DNA of 64,000 nucleotides from a virus, in UHGV virus genome UHGV-1351569. The stretch is one strand, 5' to 3'. The notes under the pieces are model-generated. The model saw only the letters and a list, made by a program, of their open reading frames with translations. It searched no databases and had not been told where the DNA came from. Shown piece after piece: positions 1,134 through 48,598 of this stretch. Every line of letters begins with the position of its first letter. Within the stretch, counting starts at the first letter, position 1. The translations under genes were made by a program, and so were the position numbers.

Positions 1134-1135
1134 TA

Positions 1136-1159
1136 GGGAGCCTTCGGGCTCCCTTTTTT
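1136..1159 (+). terminator. Intrinsic terminator hairpin (GGGAGCC-TTCG-GGCTCCC) plus T6
   Basis: Perfect 7-bp GC stem, UUCG tetraloop, T-run. Confidence 0.7.
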
Positions 1160-1183
1160 ATTTCAAAATTTTTTCACAAAACG

Positions 1184-1213
1184 GTTTACAAGCATAAAGC
1201 TTTATGGTACTAT
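1184..1213 (+). promoter_or_regulatory. T4-type early promoter (GTTTAC ... TGGTACTAT), cassette copy A
   Basis: GTTTACA -35, about 17 bp spacer, extended -10 TGGTACTAT; preceded by AT-rich TTTTTTCACAAAAC UP-like element. Confidence 0.6.
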
Positions 1214-1247
1214 ACAACTATCAACTGATACGGATTTGGAGAATAAA

Positions 1248-1994
1248 ATGAAAACTGTAACTATCAATAAGGGTATCTACTTCGGTAAAGAAATCTCTGG
1301 AACTTTTGAGCTCTTAGGCGAATGGTTCCCAGATAATGCTCCGGTAGATGCACAAGGAGATGGTAAAGTTTTTGTTGAAATTGACGGTAAACGTCGCGGT
1401 GTTTGGGTTTACAAATCAGATATTTCATATGATGGTGTAAAAGTTGAAGAAGTTAAAGAATCGTATGAAGATATGAAAACCCGCATTAATAAAAGATTTA
1501 ATGTTATGGGAATGATGACGAATGGTATTATTAATGGAAATATTCGTTCATTGATTATCTCTGGTGCAGCAGGTATTGGTAAAACGTATTCTTTAGATAA
1601 AGCTTTAAATAAAGCAAATGATATTGGATACATTGAATATAAAAGCATTAATGGTAAAATCTCTGGTATTGGTCTTTATGAGCAGCTTTGGAATAATCGT
1701 GAAGAGAATTCTGTCCTTTTGATTGATGATGTGGATGTTTTCTCTGATATGGACATTCTTAATCTTCTAAAAGCTGCTCTGGACACTGGAGAGACCCGTA
1801 AAGTCTGCTGGAGCACGGCGTCTTCTTACTTAGAAGAAAAAGGCATTGAGCGTGAGTTTGAATTTAAAGGAACGATTGTTTTTATCACAAACGTTGACAT
1901 TGACCGCGAATTAGACCGTGGTACTAAACTTGCCCCCACACTTACAAGCATTAGTGTCCCGCTCGGTTTATTTGGATTTAGGCGTTCACACTAA
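1248..1994 (+). CDS. P-loop ATPase, N-terminal part (Walker A GAAGIGKT, Walker B LLIDDVD); frame ends shortly after a C5 run
   Basis: ORF track 1236..1994 with ATG at 1248 behind a GGAG RBS; Walker motifs read directly from the translation. Confidence 0.65.
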   Translation: MKTVTINKGIYFGKEISGTFELLGEWFPDNAPVDAQGDGKVFVEIDGKRRGVWVYKSDISYDGVKVEEVKESYEDMKTRINKRFNVMGMMTNGIINGNIRSLIISGAAGIGKTYSLDKALNKANDIGYIEYKSINGKISGIGLYEQLWNNREENSVLLIDDVDVFSDMDILNLLKAALDTGETRKVCWSTASSYLEEKGIEREFEFKGTIVFITNVDIDRELDRGTKLAPTLTSISVPLGLFGFRRSH

Positions 1995-2217
1995 TGAAGA
2001 AATTATGGTCAGGGTTGAAGATGTTATTCTTTCAACTGACATGATGCAAAAGCGCGGTCTTTCTGATGAAGAAACTTATAAAGCATTATCATGGATGAAA
2101 GTTAATGTTAATCGTTTACGCAATGTTTCACTGCGTACTGCTCTTTATCTTGCTGACTTTATTATGACCGACAAAAACGGTTGGGAAGAAATTGCTGAGG
2201 TTACTCTTCTGAAATAA
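1918..2217 (+). CDS. Probable C-terminal continuation of the ATPase in the +1 frame (frameshifted gene or pseudogene)
   Basis: 99-codon open frame overlapping the 3' end of the previous ORF, no separate ATG or RBS; frames switch around CCCCC at about 1933-1937. Confidence 0.45.
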   Translation: MVLNLPPHLQALVSRSVYLDLGVHTNEEIMVRVEDVILSTDMMQKRGLSDEETYKALSWMKVNVNRLRNVSLRTALYLADFIMTDKNGWEEIAEVTLLK

Positions 2218-7643: not shown

Positions 7644-7957
7644 AAAAGCGTTTATTAGAAGATATTGCAGCTTCAAGTAATTCCAGTCTAATTAAAATTA
7701 TTATGGCTGGTGAAGAAGACGATCTGGAAATGCGTGGAAAGATTCATGGTTGTGACGATTTAGATTTTAAACCTCCAGCTTGGGATGCCATTATGGCTAT
7801 GGTTGAACGTCGCGAAAGGGCTTCTAAAAGCGTTCCTAATTGTCCTGAATGCGGTACTGAACAGGTTCAATTAGTCCATTGGCAGACTAGTAATCTTCGT
7901 TATAAATGCCGTCATTGCAAACACCGATTTAACCGAGAAGAAAATGACCAAGCGTAA
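7640..7957 (+). CDS. Hypothetical protein with C-terminal zinc-ribbon (CPECG...CRHCKH), 105 aa
   Basis: ORF track; ATGA overlap with upstream stop; two CxxC pairs. Confidence 0.6.
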
Positions 7958-8171
7958 AGAATATATGGAGATTGCTGAAAAGGCAGTACGTGAATTAGCA
8001 ATAGCATATTATAATGAACATGGTAAATTTCCTGATAGATACAGCGTGCTTAAATCTGCTTTAACTCGTTCATATAAAAATATGCTATCAGAAGTAAGTG
8101 ATATTATTACAAACATAAAGAACAAACGGGCCAAAGTCTTGATTACGACGAGACTTTTAAACAAGTACTAG
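7944..8171 (+). CDS. Hypothetical protein, 75 aa
   Basis: ORF track; overlaps upstream gene end. Confidence 0.5.
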
Positions 8172-8186
8172 GAATTAAGGAATAAT

Positions 8187-8450
8187 ATGTTTAAAGTATA
8201 TGGTTATGATAGCAACATCCATAAATGTGTGTATTGCGATAATGCAAAACGTCTTTTGACTGTGAAGAAACAGCCGTTTGAATTTATCAATATTATGCCG
8301 GAAAAAGGTGTTTTTGATGATGAGAAAATCGCTGAGCTTCTGACGAAACTAGGTCGTGATACTCAAATTGGTTTGACAATGCCACAAGTATTTGCTCCTG
8401 ATGGAAGTCATATTGGCGGATTTGACCAATTGCGGGAATACTTTAAATGA
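8187..8450 (+). CDS. nrdC: Glutaredoxin/thioredoxin NrdC (87 aa)
   Basis: Sequence MFKVYGYDSNIHKCVYCDNAKRLL... with CVYC active site matches recalled T4 NrdC; length 87 aa. Confidence 0.9.
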   Translation: MFKVYGYDSNIHKCVYCDNAKRLLTVKKQPFEFINIMPEKGVFDDEKIAELLTKLGRDTQIGLTMPQVFAPDGSHIGGFDQLREYFK

Positions 8451-9953: not shown

Positions 9954-10427
9954 ATGTTATTGACTGGCAAATTATATAAAGAAGAAAAACAGAAATTTTA
10001 TGATGCGCAAAACGGTAAATGCTTAATTTGCCAACGAGAACTAAATCCTGATGTTCAAGCTAATCACCTTGACCATGACCATGAATTAAATGGACCAAAA
10101 GCAGGAAAGGTACGTGGATTGCTCTGTAATCTCTGTAATGCTGCAGAAGGTCAAATGAAGCATAAATTCAATCGTTCTGGCTTAAAGGGACAAGGTGTTG
10201 ATTATCTTGAATGGCTAGAAAATTTACTTACTTATTTAAAATCCGATTACACCCAAAATAATATTCACCCTAACTTCGTTGGAGATAAATCAAAGGAATT
10301 TTCTCGTTTAGGAAAAGAGGAAATGATGGCTGAGATGCTTCAAAGAGGATTTGAATATAATGAATCTGACACTAAAACACAATTAATAGCTTCATTTAAG
10401 AAGCAGCTTAGAAAGAGTTTAAAATGA
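9954..10427 (+). CDS. 49: Recombination endonuclease VII (Holliday junction resolvase), 157 aa
   Basis: MLLTGKLYKEEKQKFYDAQNGKCLICQ...HLDHDHELNG matches recalled T4 gp49; length identical. Confidence 0.9.
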   Translation: MLLTGKLYKEEKQKFYDAQNGKCLICQRELNPDVQANHLDHDHELNGPKAGKVRGLLCNLCNAAEGQMKHKFNRSGLKGQGVDYLEWLENLLTYLKSDYTQNNIHPNFVGDKSKEFSRLGKEEMMAEMLQRGFEYNESDTKTQLIASFKKQLRKSLK

Positions 10428-13286
10428 CAATTGAAAAAGAAATTGAAGGATTGATTCATAAAACTAATAAAGACCTTTTAAACGAGAATGCTAATAAAGA
10501 TTCTCGTGTTTTTCCAACTCAACGGGACCTTATGGCTGGTATTGTGTCTAAACACATTGCCAAAAATATGGTCCCGTCTTTTATTATGAAAGCGCATGAA
10601 AGCGGAATTATCCATTTCCATGATATTGATTATTCCCCTGCTCTTCCATTTACTAATTGCTGTTTAGTAGATTTAAAAGGAATGCTTGAAAACGGATTTA
10701 AGCTCGGTAATGCACAGATTGAAACTCCTAAATCAATCGGCGTTGCTACTGCAATTATGGCACAAATTACTGCACAGGTTGCTTCCCACCAATATGGCGG
10801 AACGACTTTTGCGAATGTAGATAAAGTACTTTCTCCTTATGTTAAACGCACCTATGCAAAACATATTGAGGATGCAGAAAAATGGCAAATCGCTGATGCG
10901 TTGAATTATGCTCAATCCAAAACAGAAAAAGATGTCTATGATGCATTCCAGGCGTATGAGTTAATTTAATTCAGGCTCATGTAAAACCGGTCTAAACGGG
11001 GAACCTCTCTAGTAGACAATCCCGTGCTAAATGTTCTTTTGAACTAAATGCCTAACGACTAACCGTGATGAATGTAGCGGTGTAGAATAGAAGCTAATGC
11101 TATTCGAAACGGCCGGCATCGAAAGATGAAGATATAGTCTAATCTGCATGGCGACATGCAGCAGTCATCTTGTATAAATAAGATTATCTTATGAATACGA
11201 GGTGAAACAATGAAATGGATAAAAAGACGTTGTACTAAAATAAAAGATAAAGACGCATTTACATACTTAGTTAAGTTTTCTAATGGCGACATTTATATCG
11301 GTTATAAAAAAGTTAGAACAATTAAAAACAAGCCCACAAACTGGAAAACTTACACAACGTCATCTAAGTATATAAATGAACGCTTAAAAACTGATACACC
11401 TACTAAATGGATAATTTTAAAAACATTTGATAGTTATAAAGACGCATTAAAACATGAAGAAGAGGTCATACGTAAATATTTTTATAGCAAAAAATGTTTA
11501 AATAAATCCATAGGCGGTAAAAAGTTTTATAAGCATCCGGATACTGAAGAACATATTCAAAAATTAAGAGATGCTCATAAGGGTAAAGTGTTATCCGAAT
11601 CTCATAAAAACAATATAAAATCTTCTGTAGCTGAATATTATGCTAAAAACGGAAGATCTAAGGAACATGTGCAAAATAATATCAATAGTCGAAAAAGTAA
11701 AAAACAAGTATCGATAAAGCTTAAAAATAAAACTTTTAGAAGTTTTAAAAAAGCGGCGGAATATTTAAATTGCACTGAAAGTGAAGTCGAAACTCATCCT
11801 CTTGTTTTGAGTATTAAGACTACTATTCATAAAGTTCCTGAATATGTGGTTGTTGACGGTATTAAGTATACGTCTTATATAGAAGCAGCTAAAGCGCTAA
11901 ATTTTCATCCTAGCACTATAAAAGAACGTTGCGTATCTATGGACTATCCAAATTTTGTTGTTTCATATAAACGGGCATGAATTTGCGACTCATGCCGAAT
12001 ATAATGATGAAGTAAATACACTTTTCAGCTCTAATGGACAAACGCCTTTTGTAACAATTACGTTTGGTACGGGAACTGACTGGACTGAACGAATGATTCA
12101 GAAAGCAATTCTGAAAAATCGTATTAAAGGTCTTGGTCGCGATGGGATAACTCCTATTTTCCCTAAGCTTGTTATGTTCGTTGAAGAAGGTGTTAATCTT
12201 TATAAAGATGACCCGAACTATGATATTAAACAGCTTGCTCTAGAGTGCGCAAGCAAAAGAATGTATCCTGACATCATTTCGGCTAAGAACAATAAAGCTA
12301 TCACCGGTTCATCTATTCCTGTTTCTCCAATGGGTTGCCGCAGTTTCTTGAGCGTATGGAAAGATTCGACTGGTAATGAAATTCTTGATGGACGTAATAA
12401 TCTTGGCGTTGTAACACTGAATCTTCCTCGCATCGCGTTAGATTCTTATATTGGAACACAGTTCAATGAACAGAAATTTGCCGAATTGTTCAATGAACGA
12501 ATGGATTTATGTTTTGAAGCTTTGATGTGTAGAATTAGTTCCTTAAAAGGAGTTAAAGCGACTGTTGCTCCTATTCTTTATCAAGAAGGTGCATTCGGGG
12601 TTCGTCTTAAACCAGATGACGACATAATTGAGTTATTTAAAAACGGTAGAAGTTCAGTGTCTTTGGGATACATTGGTATTCACGAATTGAATATTCTTGT
12701 CGGTCGTGATATTGGGCAGGAAATTTTGACTAAAATGAATGCTCATCTTAAGCAGTGGACTGAAAGAACCGGTTTTGCTTTTAGTTTGTATTCTACACCT
12801 GCTGAAAACCTGTGCTATCGCTTCTGTAAACTTGATACCGAAAAATATGGAAGTGTAAAGGATGTTACTGATAAAGGCTGGTACACTAACAGTTTCCATG
12901 TTTCAGTAGAAGAAAATATCACTCCGTTTGAAAAGATTTCTCGTGAAGCGCCATATCATTTCATTGCGACAGGTGGTCACATTTCTTATGTTGAACTTCC
13001 TGATATGAAAAATAACTTAAAAGGTCTTGAGGCTGTATGGGATTATGCTGCACAACATTTAGATTATTTTGGCGTTAACATGCCAGTAGATAAATGTTTT
13101 ACGTGTGGAAGTACCCATGAAATGACTCCTACTGAAAACGGGTTTGTTTGTTCTATTTGTGGAGAAACTGATCCTAAAAAGATGAACACAATAAGAAGAA
13201 CTTGTGGTTATTTGGGAAATCCGAACGAACGTGGATTTAATCTTGGCAAAAATAAAGAAATCATGCATAGGGTTAAACACCAATGA
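10424..13286 (+). CDS. nrdD: Anaerobic ribonucleotide reductase NrdD, interrupted by a group I intron (exon 1 10424..about 10961, exon 2 about 11995..13286)
   Basis: Exon 1 (181 codons) and exon 2 (C-terminal about 430 codons) match recalled T4 NrdD; frame breaks with TAA at 10967; splice points are inferred from the recalled 1033-nt T4 intron length. Confidence 0.8.
11173..11180 (+). promoter_or_regulatory. Late promoter box TATAAATA upstream of the intron ORF
   Basis: Exact TATAAATA about 30 nt upstream of the endonuclease ATG. Confidence 0.45.
11210..11980 (+). CDS. Intron-encoded GIY-YIG homing endonuclease (I-TevII-like), 256 aa
   Basis: N-terminal YLVKFSNGDIYIGYKK (GIY...YIG motif); sits inside the nrdD intron as I-TevII does in T4. 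Confidence 0.8.
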   Translation: MKWIKRRCTKIKDKDAFTYLVKFSNGDIYIGYKKVRTIKNKPTNWKTYTTSSKYINERLKTDTPTKWIILKTFDSYKDALKHEEEVIRKYFYSKKCLNKSIGGKKFYKHPDTEEHIQKLRDAHKGKVLSESHKNNIKSSVAEYYAKNGRSKEHVQNNINSRKSKKQVSIKLKNKTFRSFKKAAEYLNCTESEVETHPLVLSIKTTIHKVPEYVVVDGIKYTSYIEAAKALNFHPSTIKERCVSMDYPNFVVSYKRA

Positions 13287-14549: not shown

Positions 14550-14726
14550 ATGGTTGATAAAGAGATTAAAAGGGATCAGTATTATCGTGTTAACGGACAT
14601 ATTGTTATTGTTACAGCAGTAGATGATCTAGATGTTCATTATACTGTACTTAAATGGAACAAACGCATGATTTGTGATCGTGCTGTATTTAGTTCAGTTG
14701 CTAAGGAAATTAAACTCCATGGGTAA
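14550..14726 (+). CDS. Hypothetical small protein, 58 aa
   Basis: ATG to TAA open frame read from sequence; below the ORF-track size cutoff. Confidence 0.35.
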   Translation: MVDKEIKRDQYYRVNGHIVIVTAVDDLDVHYTVLKWNKRMICDRAVFSSVAKEIKLHG

Positions 14727-14940
14727 AACGTATCGTCGTAAAGATTTAAAAGTACGTGATTATGACTATTTCGGAAAGCGTAAAGCTCCTGATGGTGTAA
14801 GTCATAAAGATATGGTTGAAAACATTTTTCGCTCTGATAAATGGCGTAGAATGAAAGGCATTGATTCAGAAGTTAAAGATGAGTTAAATCGTCAATTGCG
14901 TGGTGAAGTAAGAAAGTTGAAAAAAATCAGTTTACATTGA
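14719..14940 (+). CDS. Hypothetical basic protein (about 73 aa)
   Basis: ORF track 14674..14940; in-frame ATG at 14719. Confidence 0.5.
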   Translation: MGKTYRRKDLKVRDYDYFGKRKAPDGVSHKDMVENIFRSDKWRRMKGIDSEVKDELNRQLRGEVRKLKKISLH

Positions 14941-15152
14941 CGATGATTTTGATTACAATACTTCTCAACGAGTTGCTAAGCGTAAATCAAACGAGTGCTA
15001 TCGTTACAGCTGAGGAAAATATGAATATCAAACGCATGCTTTTTAAACAAGGATTATACACTTTAAATATTGCTCCAAAAGGCGATACGACCAAGTGGTC
15101 AGTAAATGACTGGATTAAATTCATTGATGAAAACGGTAACTGGAAAATTTAA
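14937..15152 (+). CDS. Hypothetical small protein (start may be ATG 15021 behind TGAGGAAAAT)
   Basis: ORF track; strong RBS before the internal ATG at 15021. Confidence 0.4.
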   Translation: MTMILITILLNELLSVNQTSAIVTAEENMNIKRMLFKQGLYTLNIAPKGDTTKWSVNDWIKFIDENGNWKI

Positions 15153-45362: not shown

Positions 45363-45392
45363 GTTTACTTCCTCGGTTAGTTGTGGTATTAT
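45363..45392 (+). promoter_or_regulatory. T4-type early promoter (GTTTAC ... TGGTATTAT)
   Basis: Consensus elements right after the dexA stop. Confidence 0.55.
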
Positions 45393-45419
45393 AATACCAT
45401 AGCTACTGAGGATAATAAA

Positions 45420-45917
45420 ATGAAAATTTATCGTGTTGAATCATCGTTTAGTATTCTTGATTATGAAGATGCTATAACAATACGTCGAAATCTTTGTGTT
45501 CAAATAACACCGTACAGGAGTATAATAGATTCATGGAGCGAAGAGTGGCTATTACACGTAGGTTATGACAGACCTAATTTTATGCATCATAACGATAATA
45601 AAAGAATTCCTTTACCACACGAAGATAAACTATTAGTTAAAAACGCTAATATAGTAATTAATACTAAGTTCAAGAAAGATTATGTTGGAGTAGAATATCA
45701 TATTCCAGGATGGTTTATAGCTCTTTATCATTTTGCTTTCGCTAGTGAATATGATATGATGAGATGGTTCACACGAGAAGAGCGGGAAGAATTATCTTCT
45801 AAAGGATTTTATCTCGCTGTATACGAAGTTCCTGAAGATGAAGTTATCATTGGCGGGCACCAAGTAATGTTCCGCAAATCGCATGCTGAACTCATAGATT
45901 TTATTGAAATGAGATAA
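45420..45917 (+). CDS. Hypothetical protein (about 165 aa)
   Basis: ORF track 45381..45917; ATG 45420 behind GAGGATAATAAA. Confidence 0.55.
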   Translation: MKIYRVESSFSILDYEDAITIRRNLCVQITPYRSIIDSWSEEWLLHVGYDRPNFMHHNDNKRIPLPHEDKLLVKNANIVINTKFKKDYVGVEYHIPGWFIALYHFAFASEYDMMRWFTREEREELSSKGFYLAVYEVPEDEVIIGGHQVMFRKSHAELIDFIEMR

Positions 45918-45919
45918 TT

Positions 45920-46459
45920 ATGAAATTTAATTATAATCCTGAATACACACCAAATCCGGTAGCTAAACTGATTGATTTTGATGTTGTAAGCACTTATGTA
46001 TGCCCTGTTAAACCACTGGAAATTAAGGAACCTACTATGACTACCGCTATTGAAATCGGCAAAATCTACAAACTGGCTGAAACTGAAATTAAAACTACTG
46101 AACTAAATTTGGGTTATAAAGCATTGACTAATGTTTTTGGTGAAGGCGAGTTTGTGGTTAAAAGCTTTTCAAAAAGTAACTGGCATGATAAGAATAAAGC
46201 TTACGTGATTCGAGTGCACCGTTTAGATAATGATGAAGTAATTAAAACTATAGTTTTTGAAGCAGAGTTCATCCTCTTTCAAGAATGCGATCCTACTGAC
46301 CTTCTAACTCGTGCGGTAGCTATCAAGACTCCATTTATTTCGGTCTGTGGTTGGGTAACAGACCAATGGATTGAAGATGGTGTTGAACTTCTGAACGTTG
46401 TTCATGCAGGTGATTTTAGTGTAGTACCTCGTAGTGCGGTGGTAGCTATTTTAAATTAA
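45920..46459 (+). CDS. Hypothetical protein, 179 aa; paralog of the next gene
   Basis: Shares C-terminal block CGW(V)TDQW(I)EDGVEL(L)NVV with 46536..47024. Confidence 0.6.
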   Translation: MKFNYNPEYTPNPVAKLIDFDVVSTYVCPVKPLEIKEPTMTTAIEIGKIYKLAETEIKTTELNLGYKALTNVFGEGEFVVKSFSKSNWHDKNKAYVIRVHRLDNDEVIKTIVFEAEFILFQECDPTDLLTRAVAIKTPFISVCGWVTDQWIEDGVELLNVVHAGDFSVVPRSAVVAILN

Positions 46460-47620: not shown

Positions 47621-48039
47621 TGGCTATTAAATTTGAAGTTAATAAATGGTATCAATTTAAAAATAAACAAGCTCAAGAAAATTTTATTAAAGACCATACT
47701 GATAACGGAATCTATGCGCGGCGTTTAGGTATGGAACCTTTTAAAATTTTAGATGTTGACTATTACGGGCGTCCTACTAAAATTGTGACATCTACTGGCA
47801 TAGTTGGATATTCATCACGAGGTACAGTCATTGACGAAAACTTTATCTGGCTTTGTACTAACGAAGCTGGGTTCTTTGATGAAGTGGAAAATCCATACCA
47901 AGCAGCTGAAGAGCAAGAGCAGGAAGAGCAAGAACAAATAGAAGATTTCACAGAATTTCCTGCCATGAAAGTTACTATTGAAAATAATGAACAGGCATGG
48001 TCCTTGTATCAGATGTTGAAAGCACACTTTAAGGAATAA
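47620..48039 (+). CDS. Hypothetical protein, 139 aa, with acidic [10 protein letters not shown] stretch
   Basis: ORF track; ATG overlaps the upstream TAA. Confidence 0.55.
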
Positions 48040-48041
48040 TT

Positions 48042-48218
48042 ATGCCAATGTATGATTATAAATGCCAATCCGAAGATTGCGGGCATGAATATGAAAAAAT
48101 TAAAAAGATTTCTGAACGAGAAAATGATGTTTGCCCTAAATGTCATCGTCTGTCTATTCGTCGGCCTTCTGCTCCTAAGCATGTGAATGGTGGATTTTAC
48201 GACTTACTTAAAGGGTAA
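48042..48218 (+). CDS. Small zinc-ribbon protein, 58 aa (CxxC...CxxC)
   Basis: MPMYDYKCQSEDCGH...CPKCHRLS; AAGGA RBS; below the ORF-track cutoff. Confidence 0.45.
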   Translation: MPMYDYKCQSEDCGHEYEKIKKISERENDVCPKCHRLSIRRPSAPKHVNGGFYDLLKG

Positions 48219-48220
48219 TT

Positions 48221-48505
48221 ATGTTTAAAATCGGTAAGAAATATCGCATTCGCGAAGGTGAAGAAAAGAAATATCTATCTTCTGCTATTTATAGGAATGG
48301 TTCTATTAATGCCGTAATATCTACAAGCGAATTTATCGTTGAAGATATGAAAGGTCATAACGTTACAATGATTAGTACAGCAACTAGCAGAAATGCTGGA
48401 AAAATTCTTCACAGTCTTCGGAGTGAAGTTTTAATTTATGATGAAGAATTTGACTTCTTCGAAGAAGTTCCCGAAGATTTTGATTTGAATGTACTATCAC
48501 TATGA
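48221..48505 (+). CDS. Hypothetical protein, 94 aa
   Basis: ORF track. Confidence 0.5.
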   Translation: MFKIGKKYRIREGEEKKYLSSAIYRNGSINAVISTSEFIVEDMKGHNVTMISTATSRNAGKILHSLRSEVLIYDEEFDFFEEVPEDFDLNVLSL

Positions 48506-48598
48506 AATCTGGTGACCCTCTTTCTTTTACAGTTAAAGATGAAAGAAGTCGTTTAAGAATTATTAGTCTCCTTCAAGCCATTAAATTTGAGTGAAATT

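Follow-up and report, generated by a model that had tools for sequence, protein, structure and literature searches.

The 64,000-nucleotide (nt) stretch of virus genome UHGV-1351569 analyzed here (referred to below as the window) is part of the genome of a T4-like phage of the genus Tequatrovirus and carries a broken copy of nrdC.10, a gene for an AAA+-type ATPase, whose reading frame is shifted by one extra base in a run of five C residues (C5) at positions 1933 to 1937 of the plus strand. We hold with good confidence that this is a real, recent, and strain-private frameshift mutation in an accessory gene, and that it is neither a programmed recoding signal nor an error of assembly; the mutation probably inactivates the gene, and the break is an ordinary gene disruption. 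An earlier reading made from the sequence alone had proposed that a single P-loop ATPase gene is split at the C run and had offered three explanations, namely, a programmed +1 frameshift, a recent pseudogenization, and a homopolymer indel error. The proposal proved correct, the gene being the orthologue of T4 nrdC.10 altered by one base, and among the explanations it is recent pseudogenization that finds support, with the break confined to one close lineage and intact orthologues present elsewhere.

As now translated, the 5' part of the gene extends from an ATG at 1248 (or a TTG at 1236) to a TAA at 1992 to 1994 (feature 1248 to 1994, plus strand) and encodes a 248-amino-acid (aa) product, made up of 230 native residues followed by 18 out-of-frame residues (TLTSISVPLGLFGFRRSH). 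This open reading frame (ORF) contains the motifs GAAGIGKT (nt 1563 to 1586), LLIDDVD (1716 to 1736), and TIVFITN (1872 to 1892), and in the +1 frame, the listed ORF runs from a GTG at 1918 to 2217. The coordinates given in the sequence-only reading, that of the CCCCC run included, are all confirmed, and exactly 18 sense codons separate the run from the stop. Compared with the 322-aa orthologue of phage vB_SsoM_113, the window aligns at 98.3% over residues 1 to 235 in the first frame and at 98.9% over residues 228 to 322 in the next, which makes the two ORFs the halves of a single gene, nrdC.10. Deletion of one C gives a reading frame of 969 nt and 322 aa; the joint protein had been put at about 325 aa, and while a single gene is indeed restored, it is T4's own copy that is 325 aa long. 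The gene is a single coding sequence (CDS) of 969 nt in KNP5, SA20RB, PP01, T4_ev240, and vB_SsoM_113, and of 978 nt in T4. Where relatives read GCTCCA or GCCCCA, the alignment sets GC-TCCAC against GCCCCCAC in the window, a difference of one extra base; the two closest records, T4_ev240 and TB004, read GCCCCACAC, with four C residues (C4), so that the simplest history is a change from C4 to C5.

The extra base is absent from other deposited phage genomes. The 1.3 kb around the site has matches in 632 phage records, with identities of 95 to 99% in about 500, and a 76-nt probe spanning the site matched 483 phage records, none of which (0/483) was identical at 100% and none of which had C5; among the matches listed, each covers 75 record bases against 76 query bases. 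Searches for C5 with haplotype-specific and general patterns found no match in IMG/VR, the JGI metagenome collection, or the GTDB genomes, collections that are without this strain and so carry no information on a C4 version of it; as controls, the C5 pattern matches the window, and its in-frame version matched five IMG/VR contigs. Nor was any split at the C-run site seen among the inspected members of the 1,006 homologues found. Four homologues considered as split genes (P0006, P0085, P0095, and P0115) were rejected as such, being N-terminal truncations or partial genes with one frame through the site. The idea that other split alleles share the C5 run was likewise discarded: the separately called C-terminal fragments stem from other causes, tracing to different breaks (BYEP02, Shinka, and GCA_053218395.1), to scaffolds with gaps of N (L055 and L059), or to a chimeric scaffold (L052). 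Alignment of the orthologues, which had been proposed as a check, thus recovered single frames and not two separate proteins with independent starts. The window has two frames in place of the single uninterrupted frame expected of T4 NrdC.10 and phrog_1250, which makes its gene a disrupted allele of the NrdC.10 family rather than a normal representative.

A single base in a homopolymer that is missing from all deposited phage genomes is what a sequencing or assembly error would look like, in which case the real phage would have C4 and an intact gene. Several other one-base coding indels in the window at first also suggested an error-prone assembly, and these four indels together prompted sequencing error as a working idea, which was dropped once all four were found to recur in independent assemblies. 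An exact-sequence look-up found the 248-aa truncated product encoded on 11 contigs; in nine aligned loci, the C5 run itself could be read. The sources are at least four runs of one project, PRJNA217052 (SRR2191451, SRR2191163, SRR2228257, and SRR2191108, in MEGAHIT assemblies); three European Nucleotide Archive (ENA) assemblies made with a different assembler, SPAdes, at about 4x coverage (ERZ2661035, ERZ2661042, and ERZ2661055); and a 168,202-bp contig that is present in both JGI (3300045988) and ENA and from which the window itself was probably taken. A Fiji Islands cohort is the subject of one of the papers that cite PRJNA217052, and we take the project to be the Fiji Community Microbiome Project. 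The three other indels of the strain, in nrdC.1, gene 55.5, and the RB32ORF005c homologue, are likewise reproduced in the same sample sets. Moreover, the JGI metagenome that holds the C5 contig also contains a different, co-occurring T4-like strain whose assembly has the in-frame version, which shows that there is no systematic misreading of the site. With C5 reproduced by independent Illumina assemblies of several samples, a homopolymer indel error is largely excluded, and we regard it as highly improbable; the extra C is a property of a real, repeatedly sampled phage strain. Over stretches of up to 5 kb, the aligned C5 contigs all match the window at 100% identity and therefore represent one clonal strain.

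Within that lineage, the identical C5 contigs amount to zero divergence, and the part of the gene beyond the break shows no decay. Against six relatives, the restored gene differs by 9 to 13 synonymous and 0 nonsynonymous changes, of which 3 to 5 synonymous and 0 nonsynonymous changes lie downstream of the break, and intact alleles with the identical amino acid sequence exist in other strains. The frameshift is recent on the timescale of nucleotide substitution.

What the break removes can be judged from the family to which the gene belongs. The restored protein matches phrog_1250 (function unknown) with residues 1 to 322 on positions 1 to 327 of a 327-position profile (E = 1.3e-166); over the whole query it shows 100% identity to the cluster representative P0001, and its amino acid sequence is that of the copies in KNP5, SA20RB, and vB_SsoM_113. 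Among the matches listed, full-length homologues measure 321 to 340 aa and come from phages of Escherichia, Serratia, Enterobacter, Klebsiella, Yersinia, Acinetobacter, and Aeromonas. The protein has a Walker A motif, GAAGIGKT, at residues 106 to 113 and a Walker B motif, LLIDD, at residues 157 to 161, and G106, G109, G111, K112, D160, and D161 are invariant in 48 homologues. Several AAA and P-loop families of Pfam are matched, with all AAA matches falling under the curated cutoffs (the best, AAA_14, at 23.5 bits versus a cutoff of 27, and PF00004 at 16.5 versus 21.2). An AlphaFold model built with the 48 homologues (mean predicted local distance difference test score of 89.7) consists of an N-terminal beta domain, a P-loop core, and a C-terminal helical bundle at residues 249 to 320; the core strands, at residues 101 to 105, 130 to 135, 155 to 160, 209 to 214, and 240 to 243, give the alpha-beta-alpha core with helical lid that is typical of AAA+ proteins. 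Foldseek relates the model to many AAA+ chains with a probability of 1.0 and template modeling (TM) scores of 0.37 to 0.43, and all structural neighbors are AAA+ ATPases (ORC/Cdc6, RFC, NSF, RuvB, and dynein modules). NrdC.10 shares the P-loop alpha-beta-alpha core, the helical lid, and Walker A and B motifs with AAA+ proteins of the initiator and clamp-loader type (Cdc6/ORC, RFC, and RuvB) but differs from them in its extra N-terminal beta domain, in TM scores of only about 0.4, in Pfam scores below the cutoffs, and in having no known partner or substrate. At the level of residues, alignment of the family profile to characterized AAA+ proteins in the PDB reached only the Walker A motif of Cdc6 (E of about 0.1), and a single-sequence PDB search with NrdC.10 returned nothing useful. 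In initiator and clamp-loader AAA+ proteins, the arginine finger is located between a helix and the last core strand. Two invariant residues are candidates for functional positions in the model: N215, which follows strand 209 to 214, for sensor 1, and R238, which lies between helix 229 to 237 and strand 240 to 243, as a candidate arginine finger (S-R-S motif; codon at 1960 to 1962, plus strand; invariant in 48 diverse homologues).

For nrdC.10 in T4-like phages, only a weak AAA motif has been remarked, and the gene was present in three of six such phages and absent from some (PMC1524935); our literature search turned up no function for it and no remark beyond the AAA motif. Many deposited T4-like genomes label nrdC.10 and its neighbors as thioredoxin, but the protein is a P-loop ATPase without thioredoxin similarity, and the label appears to have been carried over from the gene-name prefix nrdC.

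The break falls after P230, which is the start of the family's densest invariant block: from there on, the invariant columns are P230, H231, A234, L235, S237, R238, S239, Y241, L242, D243, L244, V246, and H247. The model places the break within the ATPase core, ahead of the helical domain. The 230 native residues still translated span the N-terminal beta domain, both Walker motifs, and the strand of sensor 1, whereas the 3' part, now out of frame (1939 to 2217, plus strand; wild-type residues 231 to 322), covers the invariant block from H231 through R238 to H247, the final strand of the core, and the helical domain at the C terminus. The nucleotide-binding motifs are thus retained in the 248-aa product, which is without the invariant block, the last core strand, and the entire C-terminal helical domain; only a ribosomal shift at the C run would yield a product that contains R238. 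From the loss of the invariant block and the lid, we infer that the 248-aa protein is most likely inactive as an ATPase.

One might suppose instead that the split is functional, with the 248-aa protein working together with a fragment made by reinitiation, or that loss of the gene is adaptive, for example, as an escape from a host defense that senses NrdC.10. The fragment in question is a 70-aa ORF (2005 to 2217, plus strand) that gene callers report as a separate gene and that corresponds to the tail of the helical domain; its ATG at 2005 begins 10 nt past the premature stop, a gap compatible with reinitiation, which is conceivable. However, residues 231 to 252, with 11 invariant positions including R238, are in neither the 248-aa nor the 70-aa product; the ATG at 2005 has nearly no Shine-Dalgarno pairing (-1.0 kcal/mol); and the two-gene layout occurs in no other genome, the breaks of other strains lying at different positions. 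As for adaptive loss, the wide occurrence of the strain among samples means that the allele at least does no harm, and neighboring T4 accessory genes such as nrdC.5 act in phage-defense conflicts (bioRxiv 10.1101/2022.04.14.488369), but the literature search gave no link between NrdC.10 and any defense system. Taken as a pair, a working split gene and an adaptive loss strike us as unlikely.

A programmed or usefully leaky +1 shift would have the peptidyl-tRNA-Pro re-pair from CCC to CCA, such that the 248-aa and 322-aa proteins are made in a set ratio. Some features of the site favor such an event. Only at the CCC-A at 1935 to 1938 (plus strand) would a ribosome slipping by +1 regain the wild-type sequence exactly (Ala-Pro-His); for tRNA-Pro(UGG), CCA is a better pairing partner than CCC; and CCC is very rare in this phage (0.5 per 1,000 codons). 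CCC-A is the CCC-N context in which native tRNA-Pro(UGG) shifts fastest to +1 in vitro, and CCC-C gives about 1% +1 shifting at the second codon in Escherichia coli, compared with <0.003% at typical sites (PMC4519876), data that count in favor of a shift, as does the lack of nonsynonymous changes (0) in the out-of-frame downstream part. The shift is not conserved, however, being found in 0/483 phage records and at no site-matching split among the homologues inspected, and it is limited to one clonal strain. The site has neither a Shine-Dalgarno-like stimulator (it pairs at -2.8 kcal/mol, and 73% of the segments of the gene pair at least as well) nor downstream RNA structure (fold z = -0.61), and ACA, the codon in the A site of the 0 frame, is common (14.3 per 1,000, the second most common Thr codon in the window's long ORFs). 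Nonprogrammed +1 shifting is typically far under 1%, the three other frame-changing indels of different kinds in the same strain argue for plain mutation, and the second ORF is without start signals of its own: as the sequence-only reading had stated, it has no ATG or ribosome-binding site near its start, the first in-frame ATG being at 2005, with anti-Shine-Dalgarno pairing of 0.1 kcal/mol upstream of GTG 1918. With no orthologue sharing the shift, and with the shift-prone CCC-A as the only feature of programmed shifting present, programmed frameshifting did not hold up, and we judge it very unlikely. The site shares its CCC-A re-pairing with both prfB (RF2)-type programmed +1 frameshifts and error-type tRNA-Pro shifts at CCC-N, but in contrast to the prfB type, it is without conservation, an A-site stop or rare codon, an upstream Shine-Dalgarno element, or downstream RNA structure; it resembles an error-type event rather than a programmed one. 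By analogy to the tau and gamma products of dnaX, C5 might be imagined to be kept for a fixed ratio between a truncated ATPase lacking arginine finger and lid and the full-length protein, but we think this scarcely credible. Transcriptional slippage would be unlikely on a run of only five C residues.

We therefore return to an ordinary, recent gene disruption and the course it would have taken. Replication slippage in the homopolymer is the most likely way in which the C4 run gained its extra C. Ribosomes now read GCC CCC ACA, add the 18 wrong residues, and halt at the TAA at 1992 to 1994. At most a small fraction of them may shift by +1 at CCC-A and so produce the 322-aa protein in its exact wild-type form, a low-level, nonprogrammed leak that could restore slight amounts of that protein. 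The products at issue are a 28-kDa truncation and a 37-kDa full-length protein with the junction peptide ...KLAPHLQALVSR. Frameshifts in homopolymer runs of T4 are the classical material of the Streisinger slippage model. The nrdC.10 change is like those mutations in its single-base gain in a short run, its shifted frame, and its early stop; it differs from them in being a natural allele in gut metagenomes and not a laboratory mutant, and its origin by slippage is presumed.

Several points weigh against this account. C5 was read from assembled contigs, which give no within-sample ratio of C4 to C5, and the assemblies, among them those of the ERZ26610xx and JGI samples, may in part derive from related people or a shared project. 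Loss of function in the 248-aa product is a prediction, and CCC-A is shift prone, such that some full-length protein may still be made. Finally, the undamaged out-of-frame 3' part is what a recent event would leave, but selection still acting on that frame could account for it as well.

The phage evidently tolerates loss of nrdC.10, since the strain has been recovered from many samples, and nrdC.10 is not its only altered gene. Compared with vB_SsoM_113, the window has three further one-base, frame-changing indels in coding sequence, which are of different kinds, two of them being one-base deletions. In nrdC.1 (7944 to 8191), one base is lost in a TATATA context at about 8108, which replaces the last 20 or so residues and leaves 75 aa versus 83; in gene 55.5 (DUF5499; 14719 to 15152), an A6 run has become A7 at 14926, giving 73 aa versus 97 aa; and in the RB32ORF005c homologue (48221 to 48594), T4 has become T3 at 48487 (runs of four and three T residues), which splits the gene into ORFs of 94 and 30 aa. 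The window's versions of these three sites are 100% identical in 0/507, 0/409, and 0/189 phage records, respectively. The truncated nrdC.1 is reproduced in many assemblies of the same strain, and the RB32ORF005c split is found in independent assemblies. The truncated 55.5 product also occurs on contigs of different strains whose flanks are 93.5 to 96% identical (ERR15315964, SRR29747663, ERR14020261, and ERR1302796), and phage sutha, whose match spans 76 bases and has two annotated CDSs, probably carries the A-run insertion as well. Being present in diverged strains, the 55.5 truncation is therefore an older, recombining, or recurrent allele at the A run, unlike the nrdC.10 break.

Breaks in nrdC.10 have also arisen independently elsewhere in the family. 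The gene is split at other positions in BYEP02 (290 and 58 aa) and Shinka (a 101-aa C-terminal fragment), and in a 168.5-kb T4-like contig within a bacterial assembly (GCA_053218395.1, contig JBRTCF010000011.1), a C has become CC at a place matching window position 1805, giving ORFs of 200 and 70 aa. In viable, genome-reduced T4, nrdC.1 to nrdC.6 and nrdC.11 to mobD.3 were lost (PMC9825161), and nrdC.10 is not among the deleted genes that the study lists. One gene of the neighborhood, nrdC.5, counters the Dsr1 defense system (bioRxiv 10.1101/2022.04.14.488369). The nrdC-mobD block is accessory, and loss of nrdC.10 could be neutral or even helpful on some hosts.

The surroundings of the gene are those of T4. 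Relative to the T4 record, the window's plus strand is the minus strand, and the order nrdC.11 (a nucleotidyltransferase gene; 120 to 1133), nrdC.10, nrdC.9, nrdC.8, nrdC.7, nrdC.6, nrdC.5 is the same as in T4, in keeping with the earlier suggestion that counting the two ORFs as one gene makes the block fit the T4 nrdC interval. The intrinsic terminator of upstream nrdC.11 lies at 1135 to 1160 (plus strand; an 8-bp stem with six GC pairs and then a T run), and phage SA20RB has an annotated terminator at the matching place. A T4 early-promoter-like site for nrdC.10 follows at 1184 to 1213 (plus strand; TTTACA, a 17-nt spacer, and TACTAT, with an upstream TG), and SA20RB has a T4 early promoter of the GTTTAC type annotated at the homologous position. 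The Shine-Dalgarno sequence GGAG, at 1238 to 1241 (plus strand), is 6 nt upstream of the ATG at 1248 and forms an anti-Shine-Dalgarno duplex of -6.4 kcal/mol; nrdC.10 orthologues are annotated from the ATG equivalent to 1248. The window gene shares with the AAA+-like early-gene product T4 NrdC.10 (NP_049708, 325 aa; phrog_1250) its position between nrdC.11 and nrdC.9 and its early promoter and terminator layout but differs in having a frame broken after residue 230 by the extra C, with products of 248 aa and an orphan ORF of 70 to 87 aa.

Elsewhere in the window, gene 39.2 (48042 to 48218) encodes an intact 58-aa zinc-ribbon protein with a CPKC motif (Pfam Zn_ribbon_8), whereas gene 39.2 of vB_SsoM_113 (47969 to 48112 in that record) is one base short and annotated with a 47-aa product with a garbled tail; here, the broken copy appears to be that of the database record, not that of the window. 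The anaerobic ribonucleotide reductase gene nrdD (10424 to 13286) contains a group I intron (Rfam RF00028, 75.4 bits; 10930 to 11161), followed by a 256-aa GIY-YIG/NUMOD1 homing-endonuclease ORF (11210 to 11980), whereas nrdD of vB_SsoM_113 is uninterrupted. In the roughly 1.1 kb after dexA that cannot be aligned to vB_SsoM_113 (45381 to 46459), there are two ORFs of 178 and 179 aa, the first without a Pfam match and the second weakly matching the C-terminal end of the MotB family.

For annotation, positions 1248 to 1994 and 2005 to 2217 should be described as one disrupted nrdC.10, not as two hypothetical proteins. As to method, a homopolymer frameshift can be checked without reads when independent public assemblies encode the exact truncated product. 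The change has a further point of note in that a natural single-base change created a known shift-prone CCC-A site; if leaky frameshifting were to occur there after all, the allele would be a snapshot of a recoding site at its birth. For the T-even phages, the allele is natural evidence that a widely conserved ATPase can be lost without stopping the spread of a phage among human gut samples, which fits an accessory, host-specific role for NrdC.10.

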